Origin: Candidatus Peribacteraceae bacterium
GTDB lineage: Bacteria; Patescibacteriota; Gracilibacteria; Peribacterales; Peribacteraceae
Assembly: GCA_028718905.1 (NCBI GenBank)
Contig: JAQUKV010000004.1
Coordinates: 19,523 to 83,522, forward strand
DNA length: 64,000 nucleotides
Direction of reading: 5' to 3'
Of the stretch, positions 4,414 to 61,898 are shown one piece after another (within the stretch, counting starts at the first letter, position 1; the number at the start of each line of letters is the position of its first letter). Both the position numbers and the translations under genes were made by a program. Under the pieces are notes generated by a model. It ran no database searches. It was given only the letters and a program-made list of their open reading frames with translations, and was not told where the DNA came from.

Positions 4414-4914
4414 TTACCATTTCTCGCGGTGAATTCTCTTCGGATCGAACTCCGCATCCGTGTGCGGTGCCGGCTTCTCTGTCGGGTACCCGACGGGGAT
4501 CACATTGATGATGAGGCAGTGCTCCGGAATGCCGAGAATCGCACGCACCGCGGATAGTTCCTTTTCTGCATGCACGTGTTTCCACACGCAGCCCAATTTT
4601 AAGTGCGTCACTTGCAGCCAGATATTCTCGGTGGCGAGGGCGAGATCCTCCGTCGGTTTGCTCGCGATCTTGGTATCCGAAACAGGCACGATCAGCACTG
4701 GTGCCCTGGCCACGAAATCCTGCGCCACGAGCGCGCTCTGAATCGCCTGACGCACCTTCGGGTCCGTCACCACGACAAATTCCACTGCGCGGCGGTTATG
4801 GGCGGTGGGGGCGAATTGCGCAGCCTTGATGATTTCCTCAATCAATGCGTGCGAAACGGGATCCGGTTTGAAGCTGCGGCAGGAGCGGCGACAAGAGAGA
4901 GCATCGAGAATCAT
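4414..4914 (-). CDS. nitroreductase family protein
   Basis: RRSCRSFKPDPV...APTAHNRRAVEFVVV typical nitroreductase N-terminus; 166 aa. Confidence 0.8.
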   Translation of the reverse strand: MILDALSCRRSCRSFKPDPVSHALIEEIIKAAQFAPTAHNRRAVEFVVVTDPKVRQAIQSALVAQDFVARAPVLIVPVSDTKIASKPTEDLALATENIWLQVTHLKLGCVWKHVHAEKELSAVRAILGIPEHCLIINVIPVGYPTEKPAPHTDAEFDPKRIHREKW

Positions 4915-5014
4915 GGCAAAAGACTAGATCGGTCGGTGCATTCTGAAAAGGCCGCAAAAACCGGCAGGTTGTCGTAGTGTGTGCTGGCTTGTTCATCGCT
5001 ACAATGCCGGCAAC

Positions 5015-5224
5015 GGAGGGATGGCCGAGTGGTTGAAGGCGCCCCGCACTTTCACATTTCACTGGTGGGATGGCCGAGTGGATGAAGGCGCGCGACTCGA
5101 AATCGCGTAACCCCAAAAAGGGTTCCAGGGTTCGAATCCCTGTCCCACCGCCACCAATGCGATCATGAAAGTGCGGGGTAGGCCTTCTTTACTCTCGAGG
5201 GTTCGAATCCCTCTCCCTCCGCCA
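5015..5224 (+). tRNA. interrupted type-II (Ser-like) tRNA scaffold hosting another tRNA in its anticodon arm
   Basis: Acceptor GGAGGGA/TCCCTCC, D arm GCC-GAGTGGTTGAA-GGC, T arm GAGGG-TTCGAAT-CCCTC, G+CCA; anticodon region replaced by 13-bp helix 5042-5054/5166-5178 enclosing 111 nt. Confidence 0.55.
5064..5153 (+). tRNA. tRNA-Ser (anticodon CGA), CCA encoded
   Basis: GGTGGGA/TCCCACC acceptor, anticodon arm CGCGA-CTCGAAA-TCGCG, long variable arm ACCC/GGGT, T arm CAGGG-TTCGAAT-CCCTG. Confidence 0.9.
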
Positions 5225-5406
5225 TCACGGGCACGCGACCGTTCTGCCTAAAGGCTACAAATTCACCGACATATCCAGGTTCGAATCTCTGTTCTATTCG
5301 CGAGCCGATAACTTCACAAATTGTACAAAATAGTCTATAATATAATTATGGAAGAAGGCACCCGATTGGGGCTTTATGGATTCAGAAATTTTTTCTCCTC
5401 ATTCAT

Positions 5407-5763
5407 ATGAATATCGACATCAGCCAGGAACCCACCCGCTTCGGCACCCTGCCCGTAGACGAACTCAAGCGCGGCATGCCGCAGAAAGTCATCGTCATTC
5501 GTACGTCGAGCGGCGAGGAAATCGCGCACGTCTTCCCGATGCACATCCAGCACATCGACGAAGTTCGGAAGATCCTCTCCTCGGGCGGGACGCTCGTTGC
5601 CGCTGGGGCGGTAGATACAGGCATGGCCGTGAGCGATGGCGGCCCTTTCGTCGGGTGGGATTCCAACACCTGCCGGGAAGCCCCCGAAATCGGCCACGAC
5701 CAACCGGTGAATCCAGCAGAATCCCAGCGCGTCGCGGCTGAGGTTGCGGAGAAAGTGCGGTAA
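5407..5763 (+). CDS. hypothetical protein (shares N-terminal domain with next gene)
   Basis: 118 aa; ELKRGMPQKVIVIRTSSGEEIAHVFPMH aligns with EELRAGMPQSIAVIRNQTGKEIAYIFPLH of 5813-7189. Confidence 0.6.
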   Translation: MNIDISQEPTRFGTLPVDELKRGMPQKVIVIRTSSGEEIAHVFPMHIQHIDEVRKILSSGGTLVAAGAVDTGMAVSDGGPFVGWDSNTCREAPEIGHDQPVNPAESQRVAAEVAEKVR

Positions 5764-5812
5764 ATACTCGCATCCCCCAAAGACCAGTGAATGAATCTAC
5801 TCCCATGGATCT

Positions 5813-7189
5813 ATGGACGTCGTCCTATCTTCAGAACTGAGCCACACAGGAAAGAATCCCGCAGAGGAGCTACGGGCGGGCATGCCGCAGAGCATAGCGG
5901 TGATACGGAACCAGACGGGGAAGGAAATCGCTTACATCTTCCCTCTTCACGTACCGCGCAAAGAGGAGACGGGATGTCTCCCATATGGAAAACTCGTCGG
6001 GCTCGGGACAATTGATACGGGCATTGGTGACAAAGGAGCGCCTCCGCTCATCGACTGGGAAGAGCCGCCCGAAGAGGAACAATTTGCTCGCATCACGCAG
6101 GATGCCGCGCAGGCTATTCAGGCTCTCTTGGTAAATGGCAAGGAGGGCTTCTCTGACTTCTACGAGACCCTCATTTCGCGACCGAAAAAGGCGAAGAAAC
6201 TCTCGCCACTCGACTCCTATATCGATCTCTCTGTTGTGATGGATGAGATCGTCAGCGCGAAGGAACGGGGAAAGGAATTTCAGTCCGGCGGACAGCGCCG
6301 ACAGATGCTCAGAGTGTTGCAAGGACGCTGGGATCGAAGCCTTCCTTTGGAAACAACATTTCTTGCTGCCGACGATTGTTCGCCTCGGCTTCGAAACGAG
6401 GCGAATCGCCTTGTGGAAGCGGCGCATGAGATACAGGAATTCCTCAAGCACTATCCGACGCCCGAACAAGCATTCGCGGCGCTCACGGGAAAAGAGCCGG
6501 AGGGGAAACTCCAGTGGACTATCCGTCCTTATGGAATCTGTTTCCTGACGTCCAAGCGTGAAGATGCCACGCGGTTCACGTCTCTCGGCATTTTCGGTCA
6601 CGGCGCCGCGATGGTGAAGTGCGAAGCGATGCCGGAGATGGGGAAGTACATTGCGGTCATCAACGCCGATCCTGAAATGCGGACAGTGGAGAATGAATCG
6701 GAGCAAGAGCGGAGAGAACGGGTGAAGTCGGATGTCGTTGGCGTTGAGCATGAACTCCTGCATCTCCGCACTGAGCGGCTTCTGGAAGCGAATCTCAACG
6801 AACGGAGAAAGGCGGTGAAAGATACCTACGGCGACGAGCGTTTCCTCCTTCTCTCCGGCTCGCCTCCGCTGGAACGCTGCGAACAGGTCTACGGAGACGT
6901 TGCTGACGCATACGCCAACTACAACGTCAAACACGAGCTCATCAGCTATATGACGTCTTCGCCCGAGCGCCTCCAGCACAGTGACATCTTCGACAGTGGT
7001 TCCTACGAAATGCCGGAGCCCTATCTCGTCTACGTGTACACATGCCCTCCTTACAACAAGAAGGAGGACAACGATCTTTTTATCGCGCAGAGGAAGAAAA
7101 TCGGGTGGCCCGAATGGCTCGACGAAAAAAATCACCGCTGGAATGGCGTGTTCGGGAGCGCTTGCAAGTCGTCCGCAGGAACGTGCTGA
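5813..7189 (+). CDS. hypothetical protein with HExxH motif
   Basis: 458 aa; paralogous N-domain to 5407-5763; VGVEHELLHL (HExxH); A7 run near 3' end links to next frame. Confidence 0.6.
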   Translation: MDVVLSSELSHTGKNPAEELRAGMPQSIAVIRNQTGKEIAYIFPLHVPRKEETGCLPYGKLVGLGTIDTGIGDKGAPPLIDWEEPPEEEQFARITQDAAQAIQALLVNGKEGFSDFYETLISRPKKAKKLSPLDSYIDLSVVMDEIVSAKERGKEFQSGGQRRQMLRVLQGRWDRSLPLETTFLAADDCSPRLRNEANRLVEAAHEIQEFLKHYPTPEQAFAALTGKEPEGKLQWTIRPYGICFLTSKREDATRFTSLGIFGHGAAMVKCEAMPEMGKYIAVINADPEMRTVENESEQERRERVKSDVVGVEHELLHLRTERLLEANLNERRKAVKDTYGDERFLLLSGSPPLERCEQVYGDVADAYANYNVKHELISYMTSSPERLQHSDIFDSGSYEMPEPYLVYVYTCPPYNKKEDNDLFIAQRKKIGWPEWLDEKNHRWNGVFGSACKSSAGTC

Positions 7190-7557
7190 TACCATACGCC
7201 GATGCCTACCATCGCATTGTAGAACTGTGGGATCTCGCCAAATCCTCGGGTATCGCCCCCAAAGAGATTGCCGATGTCATACTGGATTTCGAATTTCTCG
7301 AGATCCCTTCCGCGCTGGATCGCTTCATCCGCTCGAGAGCCGTCATCATCGATCAGTACACTCCGGAGAATATACGCCGTGTTCTACTCCAAGCCCTGCG
7401 ATATCAGACGCGCGGCATGCCAGTGGTCTTCCCGGGCAACAAGAAAACATACGACGAGTACGGCCAAGAAGAATTGCCCGAACGTCCGCGCGAGATCTTC
7501 ACGGCGAAGGAGATCAACGAAGGGATAAAGCTACCACGCAAAAAAGAAGCCGCATAG
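7114..7557 (+). CDS. hypothetical protein, -1 frame relative to 5813-7189 and overlapping it
   Basis: ATG 7114; overlaps upstream ORF by 76 nt across A7 tract 7125-7131. Confidence 0.5.
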   Translation: MARRKKSPLEWRVRERLQVVRRNVLIPYADAYHRIVELWDLAKSSGIAPKEIADVILDFEFLEIPSALDRFIRSRAVIIDQYTPENIRRVLLQALRYQTRGMPVVFPGNKKTYDEYGQEELPERPREIFTAKEINEGIKLPRKKEAA

Positions 7558-7795
7558 TCGGCACAGTTACAACCCCACAAAAAAATGCATACCCCAAACG
7601 AGTACAGTGAAAGCAACTCTCTACAGCCAGAGAAAACTCGGGATCTGACATCTGCGAAGCAACAGCTTCGCGAGGAGACTTCTAAGAAACTCAAACAGGG
7701 GATATGCTGACGACGTATGCTCCTGATGCGCGATACGCCATCTACTGCCAAAAGTGTTTCTGGGAGAATGTCGGCTGATCCCATAGAATTTTTCC

Positions 7796-8239
7796 ATGCC
7801 TCAGAAAAGGAAGTCTGAAATCCGCTTGGGGGATCGGGCTAGGGATGTAATCGACCGCCGCATCGCCAAAGACAAATCCCGCCTCATCGCACAGCTCAAG
7901 AAAAATCCGAGCATCCATCTCACATTCGAGAAGATCGGCATCGGCAGACGGACGTACTACCTCTGGCGGCAGGAGGACAGAACATTTGCCTCCTGCGCAG
8001 CCGAAGCGATCCGAGCCGCCATCGAACTCCGGAATGATTTCGCCGAATCGAAGCTCCTTGTCGGAATACGGAACGGCGACATGCGAGCAATCAAGTTCTG
8101 GCTCGGCCATCACCATTCTGCCTACGGCGCGAAGGTGAAAGTAGAGAGGACGATCAAAGAATCCGGCCTGACTCCGGAGCAAGAAGCGCAGATCCGGAAG
8201 GCTCTTCGTCTGGTCGGTATGGATGAAACCGGAAACTGA
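7796..8239 (+). CDS. helix-turn-helix protein, phage terminase-small-subunit/phBC6A51-like
   Basis: IGIGRRTYYLWRQEDRTFASCAAEAIRAA...LLVGIRNGDMRAIKFWL resembles phage HTH/small-terminase-type proteins (by eye). Confidence 0.45.
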   Translation: MPQKRKSEIRLGDRARDVIDRRIAKDKSRLIAQLKKNPSIHLTFEKIGIGRRTYYLWRQEDRTFASCAAEAIRAAIELRNDFAESKLLVGIRNGDMRAIKFWLGHHHSAYGAKVKVERTIKESGLTPEQEAQIRKALRLVGMDETGN

Positions 8240-8252
8240 TCCTCCGTAGCGC

Positions 8253-9020
8253 CTATCGCGCGAACTCTTTCAAGTATTTCCGGATCGCAGCCTCATCCGG
8301 CTTCTCGACATTCGTGATGTAGTAGTACTCCTTCAACAGGATCTGTTTCCCGTTTGCCTTCCGCAACGCTTCCATGATCAGATCGTCCGGCGCGGTGTCG
8401 ATGTGGATGAGGATGGTAAGGAGGATATGCCTCGTTCCGTACGACACCTTCTCGACCCGGGAATTCCATCGTTCGCACGCTTTCGCGAACGCCCGCTTCG
8501 CCGCAGTCCGGCCTTTCGCTTGCCACGAGCGGGAACCGTCGGTGCCGATCACGACGTAGTAGCGCAATTGCTGACCCAGCCCACCCGAAGGCCCCATGAT
8601 CATGCCGCCCTCGTCCTCGTCGAGCAGGTCCATCTCGAGATACATCCGGCATTCCTCCAGACAGAGGACGGCCCATCCCTTCAGAGCGGGATCCGGCTTC
8701 TTCAGGTACTTGCAGAGGAGATCAAAGCTGCGGATGGTGCCGATGTGCGCCAGGCGGAACAGGAGTTCCCGCTTTTCATCCAATGATACGTTCTTGCCAA
8801 AGAGGCGCTTGGCGGAATGCAGCGCTTCCGTTTCGCTGCTCTGTTTGCAGTCAATCTTCTCATGGTATTGGACGTACGCCTTCTGCTCAGCAACGGGAAC
8901 ACGGATATCCGAACGGGCGACGGCAAATTGCGCTGAAATGTCCTTCGGGGAGGAGGCCATAGGATCAGAGTATGCCATTGCCTGCCGCATCCGGACAGAG
9001 TCCTTCAAAAGGCTTCGCAT
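8253..9020 (-). CDS. hypothetical protein
   Basis: 255-aa ORF with protein-like composition, no motif recognised. Confidence 0.55.
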   Translation of the reverse strand: MRSLLKDSVRMRQAMAYSDPMASSPKDISAQFAVARSDIRVPVAEQKAYVQYHEKIDCKQSSETEALHSAKRLFGKNVSLDEKRELLFRLAHIGTIRSFDLLCKYLKKPDPALKGWAVLCLEECRMYLEMDLLDEDEGGMIMGPSGGLGQQLRYYVVIGTDGSRSWQAKGRTAAKRAFAKACERWNSRVEKVSYGTRHILLTILIHIDTAPDDLIMEALRKANGKQILLKEYYYITNVEKPDEAAIRKYLKEFAR

Positions 9021-9071
9021 CGCGGAATACGGCAGGATGACATTATCCGGCTATGCTTCTAGACTGTACGC

Positions 9072-9980
9072 GTGTCCACCCATGTCGCTCTCTTCGAAGG
9101 CAAGTCCATCCGCCGCCTCTGGAACGCAGAGGAGGAGCAGTGGTACTTCTCGGTTATCGATGTCGTCGGTGTTCTTTCGCAGAGCGATAATCCACAAGTG
9201 TACTGGCGGGTGCTCAAGAAACGGCTCATGGACGAAGGTTCCTCTGAAACCGTTACAAAATGTAACGCTTTGAAAATGCGGGCGGTGGACGGGAAAATGC
9301 GCATCACGGACTGCGCCACAACCGAGACGATGCTCCGTATCATTCAATCCATTCCCTCCCCCAACGCGGAGCCATTCAAGCTGTGGCTCGCGCGGGTCGG
9401 CCACGAGCGCATAGAGGAAATGCACGACCCGGAACTCGGCATCAAACGTGCGCTGAACATCTTCCGCAAGAAAGGCTACAGTGACAGCTGGATCAACCAG
9501 CGTCTGAAGAGCATCGAGGTGCGCAAGCTCCTCACCGACGAATGGGAGAAACGCGGCGTAAAGAGGAACGATGAATTCGCCATCCTCACGGATGACATCA
9601 CGCTTGCCTGGGCGGGAATGGCGACGGGGGAGTACAAACGGTTCAAGGGGCTCAGGAAGGAAAATTTGCGTGACAACATGACGAACCTCGAGCTCGTTCT
9701 GAACATGCTGGCCGAAACCGCGACGACGGAAATTTCGGAGAAGAGGGAACCGCAAACCTGGGAGGAAAACAGGAAAGTCGCGCGCGAGGGCGGCGGGATC
9801 GCCGGCAACGCTCGCAAGCAGATCGAGAAGAAGACGGGCAAGAAAGCCATAAGCCCGAAGAGGTTCGAGCCGACCCTTCGACAACGCTCAGGGTCTATCG
9901 CAGATCGCTCAGATACGAGTGGCATGGGTCGATCAGAGCGCGGTCGAAGAGCGAAGAACTCGGAATTGTCTACCGGATAG
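9072..9980 (+). CDS. BRO-N domain / DNA-damage-inducible protein D (DinD)-like
   Basis: FEGKSIRRLWNAEEEQWYFSVIDVVGVLSQSDNPQVYWRVLKKRL...DGKMRITDCA is the BRO-N/DinD signature. Confidence 0.7.
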   Translation: MSTHVALFEGKSIRRLWNAEEEQWYFSVIDVVGVLSQSDNPQVYWRVLKKRLMDEGSSETVTKCNALKMRAVDGKMRITDCATTETMLRIIQSIPSPNAEPFKLWLARVGHERIEEMHDPELGIKRALNIFRKKGYSDSWINQRLKSIEVRKLLTDEWEKRGVKRNDEFAILTDDITLAWAGMATGEYKRFKGLRKENLRDNMTNLELVLNMLAETATTEISEKREPQTWEENRKVAREGGGIAGNARKQIEKKTGKKAISPKRFEPTLRQRSGSIADRSDTSGMGRSERGRRAKNSELSTG

Positions 9981-9984
9981 ATCC

Positions 9985-11471
9985 CTACCAGCTATCCGTG
10001 AGCAGCCGGTTCTGCATGTCGAATGCCTTGCGGGCATCGCCCTCGGCGAGGAGAAGCGCCACCTGCTGCGAGAGGAGATACGTCAAATAGAAGCCGAGAA
10101 GATCCGGCCCCTTGTCCTTCTGCTTTTTGTAAAGGGGATGGTCGAGATTGATGAAGACGATGCCGCCATCGGTGAATGCCGCGGGTATCTCCTTTCCGCA
10201 GTGCTCGAGCGCGCAGGTGATGCCGACGCCGCCGACCATGATGCGTCGCGCGGTGATGCTCTTCCCCTTGAGGTCGCGGACGCGGATTTTCTTGGCGGGA
10301 GGTTCTTTCTGTTCGGCCTGCCGCGGCTCTCCCTGCGGAAGCATTTGCCCTCCTCCCGCGAGCATCTGGTACGCCGGGACCGTTCCCTCTTCTCCCGGGT
10401 ATGCCGAGGGCGCCATGGCTTCGGCATTCGATTCCTGCGCCGTCGGATCAATTTCCCCGGTCGGCGCTACCACCTGCGGCGCGATGTCGGGGTTGCGGCG
10501 GATCGCGCGGCGCATGCGAGAGAGGGAATCTTTGAGCGCCTCATCCGCCTTCCGTTCCTCCTTCTGCTTCGCGATCTCCCGCGTGAGGCGGTCCACGGCG
10601 TGTACTTCTTTGATCAGTACCGCGACGAAGGAACGGTACTCCGGCGTATCCGTGATGAAGCGCGTCCGGTCGCTCGTGATGGGGAGGAAGTCCGCCTCGA
10701 TCTTCCCCCGAAGTCGCATAACGATGGGCAGCTCGATGCCGAACGTAGAGCGGCAGACGACGACGCTGCGCACGACGCACTCGATCCCCATGGCGTCGCC
10801 CTTGGGGAAGTTGGGAAGGATGAGTTCGCCGTGGATGGGGCCGTAGGGTGTCATTGTGTTCACGGGAAAGCGCCTCCCGGAAACATGCACGGCTTCCAGC
10901 CGCTTGCCGTTGAGGAAGATCTGGAAGTGCGGCGCGTTCAGAGGAAGCCTTTCGCGGACATACCGTTCGATGTCCGGGAGCGTGAATGCGCGCTTGAGAC
11001 GCTCGAGGGTTACCGTGGTGCCGTCGGATGACTCCGGATCGAGCGGGAGCGGGATGAGCGGGATGCGCCAGGAGTCGCTTGCTCTCCAGTCACGCTTGTC
11101 GAAGACGATCTCCGCCGCGAAGTCGCTGCGTTGCGTGCGGAGCCGGAACCGATCGCATGCCGAGAGCACGGCGAATTTCCCGATGCCGAACTGGCCGATG
11201 CGGTGCCGCGGAAGCGCGGCGAGAGCGGCGCGATTTTCTTGTTCTGCGATCCGATGTTGAAGTACTCGCGCAGTCCCGCCTCATCCATTCCCCAGCCGTC
11301 GTCGCGGACGGAGAGCCGATCCGGCACCGCCTCGATCCACACGTTCTCCGCGTCGGCGTCGTAGGCGTTGGAGATGAGTTCTCGAAGAAGCTCGAGGCTC
11401 TCCCCGTAGAGCCTCTCCCCGATCGTCACGAGATGGGATTTGTCGAACCGGATCTGGATTTCATCGGGCAT
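9985..11471 (-). pseudogene. GHKL (HATPase_c_3-type) ATP-binding protein with one frame break
   Basis: N-part LRELISNAYDADAENVWIE...VRDDGWGMDEAGLREYFNIGSQNKK in one frame; RHRIGQFGIGKFAVLSA and the remaining 390 aa in another; switch within 11205-11240 at an A-run. Confidence 0.65.
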
Positions 11472-11944
11472 GGACATCCATTCCATTGTGCATTGCCATG
11501 GTAGAACGGGCAAGGAAGACTCTACGATATCGCATTCAAAGTTCGGTTGCCTGAGGGAGGTGGGTCGCCCAAGAACCGCCGCTCCACCCATGTGGGCGGG
11601 TCTCTTGAGCCCAAAAGATGAAAGGGCAGTTCGACTCCACTGCGCTCCGCTCACTGTCATTCGACTCGAGTCGAATGGTGGAGGGAGATGGCCGTCTTCG
11701 TCTCGCTTTGCTCGACTTCGCCGTGCCTGGTAGGCATCGTCAAAATGAGCTCCGAAGCCAATCGCGGCGTAGTCCGCCGACGAAGCCGGAGTGCCCTTCG
11801 ACTCGTCGCTTCGCTTGGGTGCATGGCAGGCCACTCGGCCATCCCTCCACGTAAGCGGATTGTAGCTGACGTGAGGCGGTGCGTGTGCAATTTTCTGCCA
11901 TGTTCTTCTGCGTTCAGACTCTCTATTCTGTGATCCGGTTCTTC

Positions 11945-13384
11945 ATGCCCGCAAAGCTCCAGCGACGGCTCACGCTCCCGCTCTTCACGTTCTACGGGCT
12001 CGGATCCATTCTCGGAGCGGGCGTCTACGCGCTGGTGGGCAAGGTTGCCGGAGCGGCGGGGTTCTTCACGCCTGTCGCTTTCGTTGTTGCGGCCGTCGTC
12101 GCCGTGTTCACGGGGTTCTCGTATGCGGAGCTTTCGGCCCGCTATCCCAAGAGCGGGGGGGAGTCGATTTACACCATTCATGCGTTCGGCATTCCCGCAC
12201 TCTCCACCATGGTGGGTTTGCTCGGCGTCTTTTCGGCCATCGTTTCCGTCGGCGTCCTCACGGATGCATTCGTCGGCTACTTGCAGGTTTTTTTTCACGT
12301 CACGCCGTGGATCGCCACGCTGCTCACGGTGCTCATCGCCACGGCCATTGCCGTTCGCGGGATCAGGGAGTCCGCGTTCGCCGCTTCCGTTTTCACCCTC
12401 ATCGAGATCGGCGGGCTTCTCCTCATTCTCTGGGTGGGCCGGGCCGGTCTTGCCTCCTTTCCCGCGCACATCGGCGATTTTGTTCCGCCTTTGGACGGGG
12501 TCGTGTGGTCGGGCATTCTCACGGGAGCATTCATCGCGTTCTACGCGTACATCGGTTTCGAGGACATGGCGAACGTCGCGGAAGAGGTCAAAAATCCGCA
12601 CCACACTCTTCCTCTGGGGATTCTGCTGGCCATCGCCGTTTCAACGCTGCTGTACTGCGCGGTCGCAACGGTTGCCGTGCTCAGCCTGCCGGCACAGGAA
12701 CTCCGTACCACGGATGTCCCGCTCGCGCTCATTTACGAACGCACCACCGGATCGTCGCCCGTCATCATCACATTCATCGGCCTCTTCGCCATCGCGAACG
12801 GGATTCTGGTGCAGATCATTTTGGGGTCGCGGATTCTCTATGGGTTGAGCGGGCGAGGATGGCTTCCGGCATTTCTCCACCGTGTGCATCCCTCCACATC
12901 CACGCCGCTTGCGGCGACGCTCGTCGTCGCGGCGGCGGGTCTTCTGTTTGCGCTCTGGCTCCCGATTCTCCGTCTTGCCGAGCTCACCAGTTTCACGGTG
13001 CTCGTGATTTATGCGTTCGTGAACGCCGCATGTATGCGGGTGAAACTCCGCGATCCTCATCCGGAGGGGGTACGGACATTCCCGATCGTATTTCCTCTGC
13101 TTGGATTTATCATCATCGCCAGTTTCCTGATATACCGTGTGCGGGAGGCGGTGACGATTCCCGCGCCACGTTTCGAGACAGTACGAATGTCGGTTCCGCA
13201 GGGGGATCTCGTCTTGGATATGCGCGATCCCCGTGAAGTGTGCCTCGACCTTCAACAGGAAAGAGCAGGGATGCATCGCTGTACGCTCGAGGCGGCGAAA
13301 GCATCACAGATGGAGGAGGAATGCACGGACGGGATGAGCATTGCGGGGTGTTTTGCCTGTGAATTTACGTGTCCGCTGTTGTGA
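11945..13384 (+). CDS. APC-superfamily amino acid permease
   Basis: FTFYGLGSILGAGVYALVGKVAG...FSYAELSARYPKSGGESIY, ~12 predicted TM stretches. Confidence 0.8.
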   Translation: MPAKLQRRLTLPLFTFYGLGSILGAGVYALVGKVAGAAGFFTPVAFVVAAVVAVFTGFSYAELSARYPKSGGESIYTIHAFGIPALSTMVGLLGVFSAIVSVGVLTDAFVGYLQVFFHVTPWIATLLTVLIATAIAVRGIRESAFAASVFTLIEIGGLLLILWVGRAGLASFPAHIGDFVPPLDGVVWSGILTGAFIAFYAYIGFEDMANVAEEVKNPHHTLPLGILLAIAVSTLLYCAVATVAVLSLPAQELRTTDVPLALIYERTTGSSPVIITFIGLFAIANGILVQIILGSRILYGLSGRGWLPAFLHRVHPSTSTPLAATLVVAAAGLLFALWLPILRLAELTSFTVLVIYAFVNAACMRVKLRDPHPEGVRTFPIVFPLLGFIIIASFLIYRVREAVTIPAPRFETVRMSVPQGDLVLDMRDPREVCLDLQQERAGMHRCTLEAAKASQMEEECTDGMSIAGCFACEFTCPLL

Positions 13385-18166: not shown

Positions 18167-18400
18167 TTTTCCACCTTTGTCGCGACAAAGCTTTGGCCAA
18201 AACGCCGGCGCGCCAACGCTCCTCCGCCTGGCCATGTGCTTCCTCGTCGGCTCCTACAAGGATTCGGAGCCGACTCGTCGGCATACTCGCGCACTTTTGC
18301 GTAACAAAAGTGCAGGGCATGGCTTTCCCCTTCACCCCCCGCCTGTCCGCCGTAGCCCGCATGGCGAAGGCGGATGTCGCGCCCCTCCCTTGCATCGCAA
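18167..18400 (+). repeat. structured intergenic repeat family, copy R2
   Basis: CTTTGTCGCGACAAAG, GGCGCGCCAACG, GGCTCC-11nt-GGAGCC, GCACTTTTG-5nt-CAAAAGTGC, CCCCTTCACCCCCC; lacks T/G tail. Confidence 0.7.
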
Positions 18401-27048: not shown

Positions 27049-27282
27049 CTTCCACCTTTGTCCGAGCGACAAAGGTGGAGCCCAGCCTTCGTCCCGCAGA
27101 TGCGGGACTACGGCCGGCAGGCAAAACGCGTGCGCGCCAATCCCCGCTCCACTCGGCCCTGCGCCTCCTCGCTGGCTCCTCCAAGGTTTCGGAGCCGACT
27201 CGTCGGCGACCCGCTTCGCGGCAGGGCCTCCCCCTTCACCCCCGATGGCGCGCCCTCCATGTTTTCTGTTTTGTATGTTTTA
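27049..27282 (+). repeat. structured intergenic repeat family, copy R3 (most complete)
   Basis: 12-13-bp hairpin 27050-27080, extra hairpin GTCCCGCAGATGCGGGAC, GCGCGCCA/TGGCGCGC closing helix, GGCTCC-11nt-GGAGCC, CCGC-TTCG-GCGG, CCCCCTTCACCCCC, T/G tail. Confidence 0.75.
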
Positions 27283-61663: not shown

Positions 61664-61898
61664 GTTTCCACCTTTGTCGCGACAAAGGTGGAGCCAAAAC
61701 GCTGGCGCGCCAACGCCCCTCCGCCCGGCCCTGCGCCTCCTCGTCGGATCCTCCACGGCTTCGGATCCGCCTCGTCGGCCCCACTTATTCCGCGGAATAA
61801 GCGGTAGCAGGGCCTGCCCCTTCACCCCCCGTGCCGCCCCCCATCCCGTATGTTGTTTTGTTTGTTTCTGTTCGGTTGGTATTTGCTGTTTCTTTTCG
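61664..61898 (+). repeat. structured intergenic repeat family, copy R5
   Basis: Palindrome TCCACCTTTGTCGCGACAAAGGTGGA 61667-61692, GGCGCGCCAACG, GGATCC-11nt-GGATCC, CTTATTCCGCGGAATAAG, CCCCTTCACCCCCC, T/G tail. Confidence 0.75.

Follow-up and report, generated by a model that had tools for sequence, protein, structure and literature searches.

A serine tRNA gene was found nested inside the remains of another in an uncultured groundwater bacterium of the Candidatus Peribacteraceae (CPR). In the window (the whole 64,000-nt stretch of DNA that was analysed), positions 5015-5224 carry an outer tRNA-Ser scaffold; inside it lies a 13-bp inverted repeat, and inside that an intact tRNA-Ser(CGA). Every coordinate that the initial annotation had given for this nest was borne out when the sequence was re-read. 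By homology, the outer scaffold is what remains of the resident tRNA-Ser(CGA), a gene for the same isoacceptor as the insert. Comparison with relatives showed that approximately 32 nt of the resident gene, comprising the anticodon arm and most of the variable arm, were swapped for a cassette of approximately 150 nt (5043-5193). The nested layout is real, since a related species repeats it. With moderate confidence, we infer that the cassette-borne replacement tRNA is processed from one precursor that also contains the remnant of the resident gene. In the literature, we came across no earlier description of one tRNA gene within another.

The inner tRNA-Ser(CGA) (5064-5153; this and all features below are on the forward strand unless stated otherwise) is complete and is presumed to be the working gene. 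It was called by ARAGORN and matched Rfam RF00005 over the full model (1-71) with 57.5 bits, compared with a gathering score of 29 bits (E = 8.7e-10). Its 90 nt have the canonical form of a tRNA-Ser, with a 7-bp acceptor stem, a 3-bp D stem as usual in class II, a paired long variable arm, the T-loop TTCGAAT, G73 and an encoded CCA, and the anticodon CGA sits in a 7-nt loop in the ARAGORN drawing. It is identical to the inner tRNA of a second nest (locus L003, see below) at 86 of 90 positions and to the plain gene of locus L005 at 84 of 90. The acceptor pair T3:A70 is common only to the inner tRNA of L003. Judged by such comparisons, the cassette tRNA is of a different allele type from the resident tRNA-Ser(CGA). 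The 9-nt spacer in front of it (5055-5063) would constitute its 5' leader, and the 12-nt spacer behind it (5154-5165) its 3' trailer. No similarity was detected between the 9-nt spacer and the corresponding 12-nt spacer of L003.

The outer scaffold had been described as having all parts of a class II tRNA. This held for the acceptor strands (GGAGGGA, 5015-5021; TCCCTCC, 5214-5220, with G and CCA behind it), the D arm (GCC-GAGTGGTTGAA-GGC) and the T arm (GAGGG-TTCGAAT-CCCTC, 5197-5213), whereas the anticodon loop and the variable stem are absent. The scaffold thus does not have the canonical tRNA-Ser form, with its 5-bp anticodon stem, 7-nt loop and stable variable stem. When positions 4900-5400 were searched by ARAGORN (intron and pseudogene modes) and by Rfam, neither program called the outer gene, and ARAGORN reported only the inner one.

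Two parts of the resident gene are left. The outer 5' part (5015-5042) represents nt 1-28 of the resident tRNA-Ser(CGA): it runs from the 5' strand of the acceptor stem through the D arm to the opening base of the anticodon stem. It is identical at 28 of 28 positions to the plain genes that L034/L035/L036 and L004 have at the syntenic site, beside a nitroreductase gene. The outer 3' part (5194-5224), consisting of the T arm, the acceptor 3' strand, G73 and the CCA, is identical to L034 and L004 at 31 of 31 positions. The initial annotation had proposed a look at the orthologous locus: at the site syntenic to the nest, beside the nitroreductase gene, the relatives (L034, L004) carry a plain tRNA-Ser(CGA). 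Because the two halves are identical (59/59) to the plain gene at the same syntenic site, the outer scaffold is assigned to the resident CGA gene. Of the readings offered at the outset, a tRNA-Ser(UGA) pseudogene came closest: the gene is indeed disrupted, but homology and synteny give it the identity CGA, not UGA. The flanks are 74-76% identical to those of the relatives (72/97 on the promoter side, 51/67 downstream), and the flank beginning with tcacgggca 3' of the outer CCA is common to L034. The complete lack of changes in the 59 nt of the outer halves may reflect a recent event, or a constraint that the processing model does not explain.

Between these two parts, resident sequence is gone. 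The 15 nt of the relatives' anticodon arm (ACGACTCGAAATCGT) are absent from the outer scaffold and not merely interrupted. By comparison with the relatives, the right-hand end of the imported segment probably lies in the outer variable-arm region (5179-5193). Its central patch (5185-5193, TTCTTTACT) differs from the relatives' CCCAAGGGT at 7 of 9 positions, and the outer variable stem is therefore considered lost: the G-C-rich stem GGCCC/GGGTC of the relatives is missing, and only a weak, G-U-rich alternative can be drawn. As aligned, the insert replaces resident sequence instead of simply interrupting it, and it brings the same tRNA that the insertion destroys. Since the destroyed and the delivered genes have the same anticodon, decoding capacity is kept. 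The arrangement looks like an insertion that repairs its own damage.

The cassette begins at 5043 and is framed by the inverted repeat. A repeat search located the left arm, CCCCGCACTTTCA, at 5042-5054 and the right arm, TGAAAGTGCGGGG, at 5166-5178; the two 13-nt arms are 100% complementary and 111 nt apart. Analytically, approximately 4.5e-4 perfect 13-bp inverted repeats are expected by chance in 210 nt of such base composition (approximately 22,000 position pairs x 0.256^13). The predicted minimum fold of the 210 nt is the nested structure (-99.7 kcal/mol; z = -5.2 compared with shuffles). Its junction helix is an unbroken run of 13 Watson-Crick pairs; a 2-nt bulge and a 2x1 internal loop, the irregularities closest to it, lie further out. 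When the 3' arm was shuffled, at least 90% of the inner cloverleaf pairs were kept in just 84 of 200 variants (predicted folds). The inner cloverleaf still folded in silico in truncated transcripts without the 3' arm, showing that the arm stem is not strictly required. In the predicted fold, the helix can be extended to approximately 26 pairs with small loops. This extension, which runs via the altered patch and the D-arm region, was rejected as evidence, since random 9-mers equalled its pairing in 9.3% of cases.

A second nest was found in Candidatus Peribacter sp. (L003/L010; L003 is GCA_030647195.1), that is, in another species, from another study and at another locus. These two are the only nests found in the Peribacteraceae. 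The layout of L003 is outer 5' half, CCCCGCACCTTC, tRNA-Ser(CGA) and GAAGGTGCGGGG, and its left junction falls after the same base as in the window, between GAAGGCGC and CCCGCAC. Its arms, (G)CCCCGCACCTTC on the left and GAAGGTGCGGGG(C) on the right, form 12-13 pairs. When the helices of the window and L003 were compared, 11 of 12 homologous pairs were unchanged, none was broken, and one was changed on both sides (T:A to C:G), a two-sided change seen between two sequences, which are too few for statistics. No G-U intermediates were observed, all 13 pairs being Watson-Crick in both species. The spacers between the arms and the inner tRNA have diverged past alignment, while the helix was kept. 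It should be mentioned that paired changes in the arms are equally expected for the half-sites of a symmetric DNA-binding recombinase, which speaks against the processing-stem model.

In L003, a recognisable outer 3' half was not found within approximately 5 kb. A candidate for a decayed 3' half was dismissed because its similarity was not significant (857-1663 of 2000 shuffles scored equally). Since L003 does without a recognisable outer 3' half, the outer tRNA appears to be dispensable. The locus L039, from a close relative of L003 (permease 90% identical, flank approximately 97%), retains a plain gene, the first 27 nt of which are the outer 5' half of L003. Because this close relative still has the plain gene, the L003 nest is regarded as derived.

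Outside the family, a Candidatus Kerfeldbacteria genome was found to carry a tRNA-Ser(UGA) exactly within the anticodon loop of a tRNA-Ser(UGA) remnant. This nest of the same general kind hints that tRNA-in-tRNA replacement may recur in CPR bacteria. The arm motif CCCGCA/TGCGGG, present in the Peribacter and Kerfeldbacteria nests, was not accepted as homology, because 6-mer pairs of this sort are frequent by chance in such GC-rich sequences. The locus L009, moreover, has an alternative leader-trailer pairing.

How the inner gene may be expressed is suggested by the upstream region. A -10-like element, GCTACAAT, is located at 4998-5005, 9 nt upstream of the outer 5' end, and is conserved in relatives: the identical octamer recurs 8-10 nt in front of each tRNA-Ser(CGA) unit at 9 related loci and in front of a second relic in the window (see below). 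It is absent between the outer and the inner gene, and a generic sigma-70 scan did not flag it. From its conserved position, we infer that GCTACAAT is a promoter. According to the account we favor, this resident promoter would transcribe the inner gene, which is without a conserved element of its own, within a single precursor of approximately 210 nt. The arms would pair as a leader-trailer stem, holding the near-identical outer and inner halves in register, and RNase P would cleave at 5064. Because the stem and the outer acceptor helix would close off the inner 3' end, its release would take an endonuclease that cuts within the stem or trailer, with RNase III as the natural candidate, and then trimming to the encoded CCA. 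The outer halves would be by-products without a decoding role. The nested allele was acquired or transferred at least two times in the family, perhaps via homologous exchange of an old nested allele or via site-specific insertion.

The arms could also act on DNA. In a tentative alternative, the cassette is a small non-autonomous mobile element that is served by a recombinase or transposase in trans. It would target tRNA-Ser(CGA) at the boundary between D stem and anticodon stem and would avoid lethality through its own tRNA; its excised ends would join as a perfect 26-bp palindrome, TGAAAGTGCGGGG followed by CCCCGCACTTTCA, with TGAAAGTGCGGGGCCCCGCACTTTCA as the circle or palindrome junction. 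This would fit the identical left junction in two species, two loci and two resident alleles, with each outer 5' half matching the plain gene of its own lineage at lineage-specific bases. It would also fit the arms, which are perfect, entirely Watson-Crick and symmetrically altered in the two species, and a cargo with the anticodon of its target. The cassette is without an ORF and has terminal inverted repeats (13/13 in the window, 12-13 pairs in L003), as expected for a MITE. Moreover, the site is an insertion hotspot: there are an island and a third tRNA fragment, L005 has the hairpin element, and L030-L032 have a large serine recombinase element next to the same tRNA.

On the other hand, a clean insertion would not have replaced resident sequence. 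The 15 nt of the anticodon arm were lost, and there is no target-site duplication: the cassette is flanked by GGCG and TAGG in the window and by GGC and AGCC in L003, resident bases being lost. The target's 3' half does not follow the right arm in L003. The cassette occurs once in the 64-kb window and nowhere else in the related loci, and a search of both for a second copy of the arms was likewise negative. A search for a recombinase in the adjacent 6.5 kb was negative: none of the ORFs in the adjoining stretch, 5.3-11.2 kb, had such a match in Pfam, PHROGs or NCBIfam. Neither the D-arm signature of the nest nor the inner tRNA nor the left junction had a match in the viral contigs scanned (0 each). 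As with a genomic island, element sequence restores the target tRNA, but it supplies the entire gene instead of a 3' part, and neither direct repeats at both ends nor an integrase at one end were found. It is possible, though less likely than not, that the cassette represents a new selfish or mobile tRNA unit of approximately 150 nt, without an ORF and with inverted ends, which homes to its cognate gene at a single fixed position, destroys it, takes over the promoter, puts its own tRNA copy in place and makes the host dependent on it.

The neighbourhood of the nest was searched for traces of other elements. A phage-like island begins directly 3' of the outer CCA, and its Bro-N protein matches phrog_15286 (E = 5.8e-115). 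A 458-aa ORF of the island was rejected as a recombinase, since it lacks a family match and has a single homologue; that a neighbour in L030 is also 458 aa long was judged a coincidence. At 5274-5302, a third, degenerate tRNA-Ser 3' fragment was detected (TCCAGG-TTCGAATCTCTGTTCTATTCGCG), which is similar to an inner-type T arm and 3' end (3 mismatches in 18) and is probably the scar of another insertion at the hotspot. A far att repeat of the tRNA 3' end was not found in the window; downstream there is only this degenerate fragment. Sequence comparison further revealed, on the reverse strand at 11676-11866 and convergent with the first unit, the relic of a second promoter and tRNA-Ser unit. 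It contains, in this order, GCTACAAT, GGAGGGATGGCCGAGTGG (18 nt), approximately 40 nt of unrelated sequence, a hairpin-like element of approximately 100 nt, and CATCTCCCTCCACCA. Its upstream flank is orthologous to that of the L003 and L039 unit, beside an amino-acid permease gene. The relic is unchanged in two independent Logan assemblies (SRR22315506 and SRR22315508), the contigs of which are identical to the window at 11.6-11.9 kb.

These traces, together with the fact that tRNA fragments are common at island ends (PMC9897764, PMC4383910), would be compatible with scar tissue: successive islands integrated at and deleted from tRNA-Ser, the arms being leftover att sequence without present function. 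The phage-like island adjoining the outer CCA, the 3' fragment and the convergent relic all fit such a history, as do five loci in other phyla (L013, L019, L020, L021 and L026), in which a tRNA-Ser 5' fragment is located just upstream of a complete tRNA-Ser and, where it reaches the anticodon, has the same anticodon as the complete gene. We nevertheless consider this explanation improbable. Integrase scars are direct repeats at element ends, whereas the arms are inverted and 111 nt apart; classical integration puts 3' fragments downstream, not a 5' half upstream; and resident nucleotides were lost. In addition, neutral sequence would not retain 12-13 perfect pairs and a two-sided change beside fully diverged spacers.

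Another early proposal was a functional outer gene, which would yield a tRNA-Ser(UGA) by splicing once the insert is out, or would work as two halves joined by 13+7 bp in the manner of archaeal split tRNAs. This is very improbable, although the outer gene has kept its acceptor stem, T arm, G73 and CCA intact and the same as in relatives, and although its 5' half, the complementary 13-mer and its 3' half are laid out like the split genes of Nanoarchaeum. Joining ...CACTT to TGAAAGTG... does yield a UU-UGA-AA loop, and ARAGORN accepts the product as tRNA-Ser(tga). However, when the outer halves were joined arbitrarily, in all 704 ways, ARAGORN accepted 322 of the products and read more than 20 different anticodons in them, so that its Ser(tga) call is uninformative. 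The UGA join requires an 8-bp anticodon stem (6-bp as ARAGORN draws it) and a distorted D arm. According to homology, the outer gene is a CGA tRNA with the anticodon arm deleted, and the UU-UGA-AA loop, previously taken as a clue to identity, is a by-product of the arm sequence. The canonical variable stem, which is an identity element for SerRS, is lost from the outer gene, and L003 has the arms, yet no outer 3' half. The initial annotation was right that there is no bulge-helix-bulge, the helix being 13 uninterrupted pairs. Neither this motif, in which 4 bp separate bulges of 3 nt, nor two conserved halves that rebuild a full tRNA, as in archaeal split or intron-containing genes, were found. 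It was also right that the insert is not a group I intron. Such an intron has a P1-P9 core of at least 200 nt and lies in an intact anticodon loop; here the loop is not intact, and of the 111 nt between the arms, 90 are tRNA. At E <= 10, Rfam returned no intron, ribozyme or other family for 4900-5400 beyond tRNA-derived matches. To our knowledge, no tRNA-splicing ligation pathway of such a kind exists in bacteria.

Least credible is the suggested assembly chimera, in which a metagenome assembler fused two tRNA-Ser genes or strains at shared k-mers: the inner and outer genes do share direct repeats of 28 nt (93%) and 33 nt (88%), and several short-read contigs of relatives end inside the same tRNA (L028/L029, L039), but a k-mer join would give a plain hybrid gene, whereas both junctions have unique, exactly complementary 13-mers, and the architecture and the left junction recur in an independent genome of another species from another study (L003/L010). 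The recurrence in L003 without an outer 3' half therefore argues both against a chimera and against a working outer tRNA.

Genes for tRNAs are classic landing sites of mobile DNA, and as a rule the gene is repaired with a 3' end that the incoming DNA carries. The locus embodies another solution, a whole replacement tRNA in a conserved hairpin, located within the remains of the displaced gene and apparently on its promoter. If the cassette is mobile, it would be a minimal "addictive" element, with little beyond a tRNA and two arms, and would offer a new route for tRNA allele turnover in reduced CPR genomes. If an old allele was spread by recombination, the locus would provide a rare bacterial leader-trailer stem around a single tRNA and a natural system in which to study how nested, almost identical RNA halves escape misfolding. 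For annotation, such loci are to be read as one working tRNA plus fragments, and the outer scaffold can mislead intron-aware finders.

Islands and prophages that target tRNA genes restore the target tRNA (Islander, PMC4383910; tRNA fragments, PMC9897764). As in these islands, a foreign segment inside a tRNA gene keeps the same tRNA working, old fragments remain, and the site is a hotspot with a neighbouring island. However, tRNA islands bring only the 3' part of the tRNA, leave the displaced 3' fragment as a direct repeat, span multiple kilobases and have an integrase. In contrast, the cassette has a whole tRNA on approximately 150 nt, both old halves around it, inverted repeats, lost resident bases and no integrase. 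Like MITEs, it is short (approximately 135-150 nt) and ORF-less, has perfect terminal inverted repeats and occurs at more than one locus across species. Unlike MITEs, it has no target-site duplication, is single-copy in the 64-kb window, carries a presumably functional tRNA gene and replaces its target.

Intervening sequences (IVS) of bacterial 23S rRNA are reportedly excised by RNase III without re-ligation. The nest is similar to them in that a native hairpin has become a longer capped stem, it occurs sporadically among relatives, a conserved stem encloses a variable interior, and cleavage in the stem is proposed. The difference is that fragmented rRNA still works, whereas here the host tRNA cannot decode, the "loop" is the product, and the RNase III cut is a proposal. 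Split and intron-containing tRNA genes are known from the archaea Nanoarchaeum equitans and Caldivirga. In archaeal split tRNAs, as here, the 12-14 nt behind the 5' half are reverse-complementary to those in front of the 3' half. The archaeal halves, however, rebuild a full tRNA through a bulge-helix-bulge cut by the splicing endonuclease, whereas in the nest the motif and the anticodon arm are absent, and the halves would be parts of one continuous transcript with another tRNA between them, in a bacterium. Finally, CPR bacteria have insertion sequences inside rRNA genes (PMC11270868). There, too, structural RNA genes are hit, but by introns and insertions in rRNA, some of them with homing endonucleases.

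Within the 64-kb window, ARAGORN detected only one tRNA gene, tRNA-Ser(CGA) at positions 5064-5153, which scored 57.5 bits against the Rfam tRNA model (threshold, 29 bits). It is enclosed by a tRNA-Ser-like scaffold (5015-5224). A repeat finder revealed a 13-nt inverted repeat with 100% complementarity (5042-5054 and 5166-5178) and two direct repeats (5015-5042 versus 5064-5091, 93%; 5124-5156 versus 5195-5227, 88%), which reflect the two tRNA-like layers. By an analytic estimate, a perfect inverted repeat of 13 bp would arise by chance ~4.5e-4 times in 210 nt with such a composition. The predicted fold of the 210 nt is exactly the nested structure (-99.7 kcal/mol; z = -5.2), with the helix lengthened to ~26 bp by an altered variable-arm patch. 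This extension was not counted as evidence, because 9.3% of random 9-mers paired equally well. The feature is real and was accurately described in the initial annotation as a tRNA gene nested in a second tRNA scaffold.

The nitroreductase (4414-4914, minus strand) and the amino-acid permease (11879-13384) encoded in the window are 100% identical to proteins of Candidatus Peribacteraceae bacterium (Peregrinibacteria, CPR); the next-nearest relatives are 70-77% identical. The two proteins were used to retrieve the orthologous neighbourhoods of a dozen relatives. Near these genes, the relatives harbor a single plain tRNA-Ser(CGA), always preceded by the octamer GCTACAAT at a distance of 8-10 nt. 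In four related loci (L034, L035, L036, and L004), a plain tRNA-Ser(CGA), named type A, adjoins the nitroreductase gene in the orientation of the outer scaffold. Over the first 28 nt and the last 31 nt, this gene matches window positions 5015-5042 and 5194-5224 at 59/59 nt, and the intergenic flanks are only 72/97 and 51/67 identical. This homology and synteny show that the outer scaffold is the resident tRNA-Ser(CGA) gene, and not a tRNA-Ser(UGA) as originally proposed.

In comparison to the intact gene, the outer scaffold lacks 15 nt of the anticodon arm (ACGACTCGAAATCGT), and 135 nt (5043-5177) are new. In addition, 7 of 9 central positions of the outer variable arm (5185-5193) are changed, so that the GGCCC/GGGTC variable stem is lost. 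The clustering of these changes beside 59 unchanged positions suggests that they were imported with the insert rather than accumulated in place. Overall, ~32 nt were replaced by ~150 nt (5043-5193).

The inner tRNA is a different allele (type B), which is 84/90 identical to the plain gene of the related locus L005 and 76/90 identical to type A, and its anticodon (CGA) is that of the displaced gene. All plain genes have the acceptor pair A3:T70, whereas T3:A70 is common only to the inner tRNA of the window and that of a nested locus from Ca. Peribacter sp. (L003). As a result, pairing between the acceptor strands of the two layers (outer 5' with inner 3', or inner 5' with outer 3') would contain a mismatch, a property that was possibly selected. 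At the sequence level, the resident gene is broken, and a complete gene with the same anticodon lies inside it. The most plausible interpretation is that a hairpin-flanked tRNA-Ser(CGA) cassette disrupted a resident tRNA-Ser(CGA) gene and took over its function.

Among 185,579 species-representative genomes, a search for pairs of tRNA-Ser D arms separated by only 10-40 nt yielded 12 matches: seven protein-coding repeats, two exact tandem duplications, one displaced 5' fragment upstream of a complete tRNA-Ser, and two nested layouts, both in CPR bacteria. None of the eight matches obtained with the same D-arm scan of metagenome contigs was nested; in L022, L024, and L025, the 5' part was exactly duplicated in tandem, and in L019, L020, L021, and L026, a displaced 5' fragment closely preceded a complete tRNA-Ser.

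The Ca. Peribacter sp. locus (L003/L010) has the order promoter, GGAGAGGTGGCCGAGTGGTCGAAGGCG, CCCCGCACCTTC, 12 nt, tRNA-Ser(CGA), 27 nt, and GAAGGTGCGGGG. In L003 and in the window, the junction with the resident 5' half falls after the same base (GAAGGCGC|CCCGCAC), and the inner tRNAs are 86/90 identical. Eleven of the 12 homologous helix pairs are unchanged, one is changed on both sides (T:A to C:G), and the spacers are not alignable. The inverted arms thus appear to be maintained across species and the adjoining spacers not. The L003 unit occupies another site and orientation: it adjoins the permease gene and reads away from it. At this site, a close relative (L039; permease 90% identical, flank ~97%) contains a plain, self-consistent tRNA-Ser(CGA), the first 27 nt of which equal the outer 5' half of L003. 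The L003 nest is therefore derived and recent, and the two nests represent at least two separate acquisitions or transfers. An outer 3' half was not recognisable in L003: there was no T-loop motif within ~5 kb, and the similarity of the flank to a tRNA 3' half was not significant. An intact outer tRNA is evidently not needed.

Upstream of the outer 5' end lies a conserved promoter element that has no counterpart before the inner gene. The resident promoter would give rise to one precursor of ~210 nt, in which the arms would pair and RNase P would cut at position 5064. The inner 3' trailer would lead into the stem and on to the outer acceptor helix, so that the inner CCA would become accessible to exonucleases only after endonucleolytic cleavage of the stem or trailer, for which RNase III is the obvious candidate, given a perfect stem of at least 13 bp. 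When the 3' arm was shuffled in silico, only 84 of 200 variants retained at least 90% of the inner cloverleaf pairs, whereas transcripts without the outer 3' half were still predicted to fold correctly. Thus, the stem may serve mainly to keep the near-identical halves in register.

Instead or in addition, the arms could act as DNA, as two half-sites of a symmetric recombination site ending a tiny non-autonomous element. Consistent with this, the junction is the same in two distinct resident alleles, each at its own locus, the arms pair strictly by Watson-Crick rules, and the change affects both arms symmetrically. However, resident bases were lost, there is no target duplication, the cassette is single copy within the available sequence, no recombinase was recognised nearby, and the right-hand target half is missing in L003. 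There is a fair, though less than even, chance that the cassette represents a hitherto undescribed type of mobile tRNA unit. Another possibility is that homologous recombination at the conserved tRNA ends has transferred an old nested allele from genome to genome; this would account both for the replacement of resident sequence and for the imported patch in the variable arm. A spliced or split tRNA-Ser(UGA), the functional reading favoured initially, is unsupported, since there is no bulge-helix-bulge, the exon set is incomplete, and the halves are evidently dispensable. ARAGORN did not call the outer gene with introns allowed. It accepted the proposed join as tRNA-Ser(tga) but, since the score derives from the intact acceptor and T arms, also 322 of 704 arbitrary joins of the outer halves, spanning over 20 anticodons; the call is therefore no evidence. 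An assembly chimera, also considered in the initial annotation, is unlikely.

The site at which the cassette replaced the resident gene is a hotspot. Approximately 45 nt directly after the outer CCA are still alignable to L034. At ~50 nt past this CCA, there is a third tRNA-Ser 3' fragment (5274-5302), in which an inner-type T arm and acceptor strand have degenerated through several C-to-T substitutions and the deletion of 1 nt; another insertion probably left it as a scar. A strong promoter-like site follows (5313-5341). The ~6 kb between the two tRNA units (about 5303-11675) are absent from relatives. They contain an orphan 458-aa ORF (5813-7189) with a single homologue among 5.8 billion proteins, a small helix-turn-helix protein similar to terminase small subunits (7796-8239), a Bro-N protein (9072-9980; phrog_15286, E = 5.8e-115), and a minus-strand ORF (9985-11169). 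The stretch before this ORF, to ~11497, resembles by eye a GHKL-type ATPase N-terminus but is out of frame, and the two may be a frameshifted gene. No integrase or recombinase was recognised in the island.

The second unit (11676-11866, minus strand), convergent with the nested one, is a relic: GCTACAAT, an 18-nt tRNA 5' end broken in the D loop, unrelated sequence, a ~100-nt hairpin-like element, and a decayed 15-nt 3' end. The upstream flanks of the relic and of the L003/L039 unit beside the permease gene are orthologous, and the relic is unchanged in two Logan assemblies (L037 and L038). The hairpin-like element (~11691-11790) is homologous to a long imperfect hairpin of ~95 nt (tccggcttcg...gaagccggc) in two related loci (L005:2322-2431 and L006:2088-2197, minus strand), where it separates an intact tRNA-Ser(CGA) from a 15-nt copy of the tRNA 3' end (CCTGTCCCTCCGCCA). 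This is a second kind of small hairpin insert tied to tRNA-Ser(CGA) in Peribacteraceae. In three further loci (L030-L032; L030:1-2191), AT-rich, foreign-looking DNA starts right after the CCA of a plain tRNA-Ser(CGA), and a large serine recombinase (Resolvase, Recombinase, and Zn-ribbon domains) and a primase-helicase lie ~2 kb off its 3' side. Short-read contigs of relatives start or end inside the tRNA-Ser gene (L028:1-30, L029:1-30, and L039:1-20), which suggests branch points in those populations, due to presence or absence of an insert or to repeated tRNA pieces.

The window also contains a ~115-nt repeat family with 60-86% identity (18168-18282, 27093-27207, and 61665-61779), adjoined by a shorter conserved motif ending CCCCTTCACCCCC, with four intergenic sites (18312, 27216, 44716, and 61802). 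Many short tandem arrays of 7-13-nt units (e.g., GGGATTG, TAGGGAAC, AAGACAT/AAGCTTA-type, and GTAGGATTAGGGC) recur at several sites, which is unusual for a small genome (24651-24721, 28015-28082, 30528-30557, 32782-32813, 38540-38573, 43123-43166, 56294-56327, 58050-58105, and 59005-59072).

A nest from Ca. Kerfeldbacteria (JACRFN010000130.1; L009:647-1011, minus strand) consists of tRNA-Ser sequence in three concentric layers. An intact tRNA-Ser(UGA) (782-871), plus ~60 nt, lies exactly between anticodon-loop positions 35 and 36 of a tRNA-Ser(UGA) remnant, which is flanked by pieces of a third gene (16 nt of the 5' end, cut in the D loop; 20 nt of the 3' end, cut in the T loop). A plain tRNA-Ser(GCU) comes next. 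This nest and the Peribacter nests share a common theme of same anticodon and concentric fragments, but differ in the junction. Similarity of their arms was rejected as a sign of kinship, being short and within chance. In various phyla (L013, L019, L020, L021, and L026), a complete tRNA-Ser is preceded, at a distance of 7-15 nt, by a tRNA-Ser 5' fragment that extends into the anticodon arm or barely beyond it; fragments that reach the anticodon have the same one, and the fragments differ in sequence from the complete gene. Such fragments are unexplained by classical integration, which leaves 3' fragments. They may have arisen by the same kind of replacement, except that the 3' half was displaced or lost.

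Full-text literature searches revealed no published bacterial case of one tRNA inside another and no such tRNA insertions in CPR. The likeness to archaeal split tRNAs is only superficial, since the window locus has neither a bulge-helix-bulge nor a complete exon set, and its halves appear dispensable. Structurally, it is similar to the RNase III-excised intervening sequences of 23S rRNA, in which a native hairpin becomes a longer capped stem, but here the loss is fatal to the host RNA. In its mode of action, the arrangement is closest to tRNA-targeting islands, which repair their target upon insertion. In contrast to such islands, the cassette brings a whole gene on ~150 nt, with inverted instead of direct boundary repeats and without an integrase. 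Read as a replacement cassette, the locus is a new variant of how tRNA-gene insertions compensate for their own damage.
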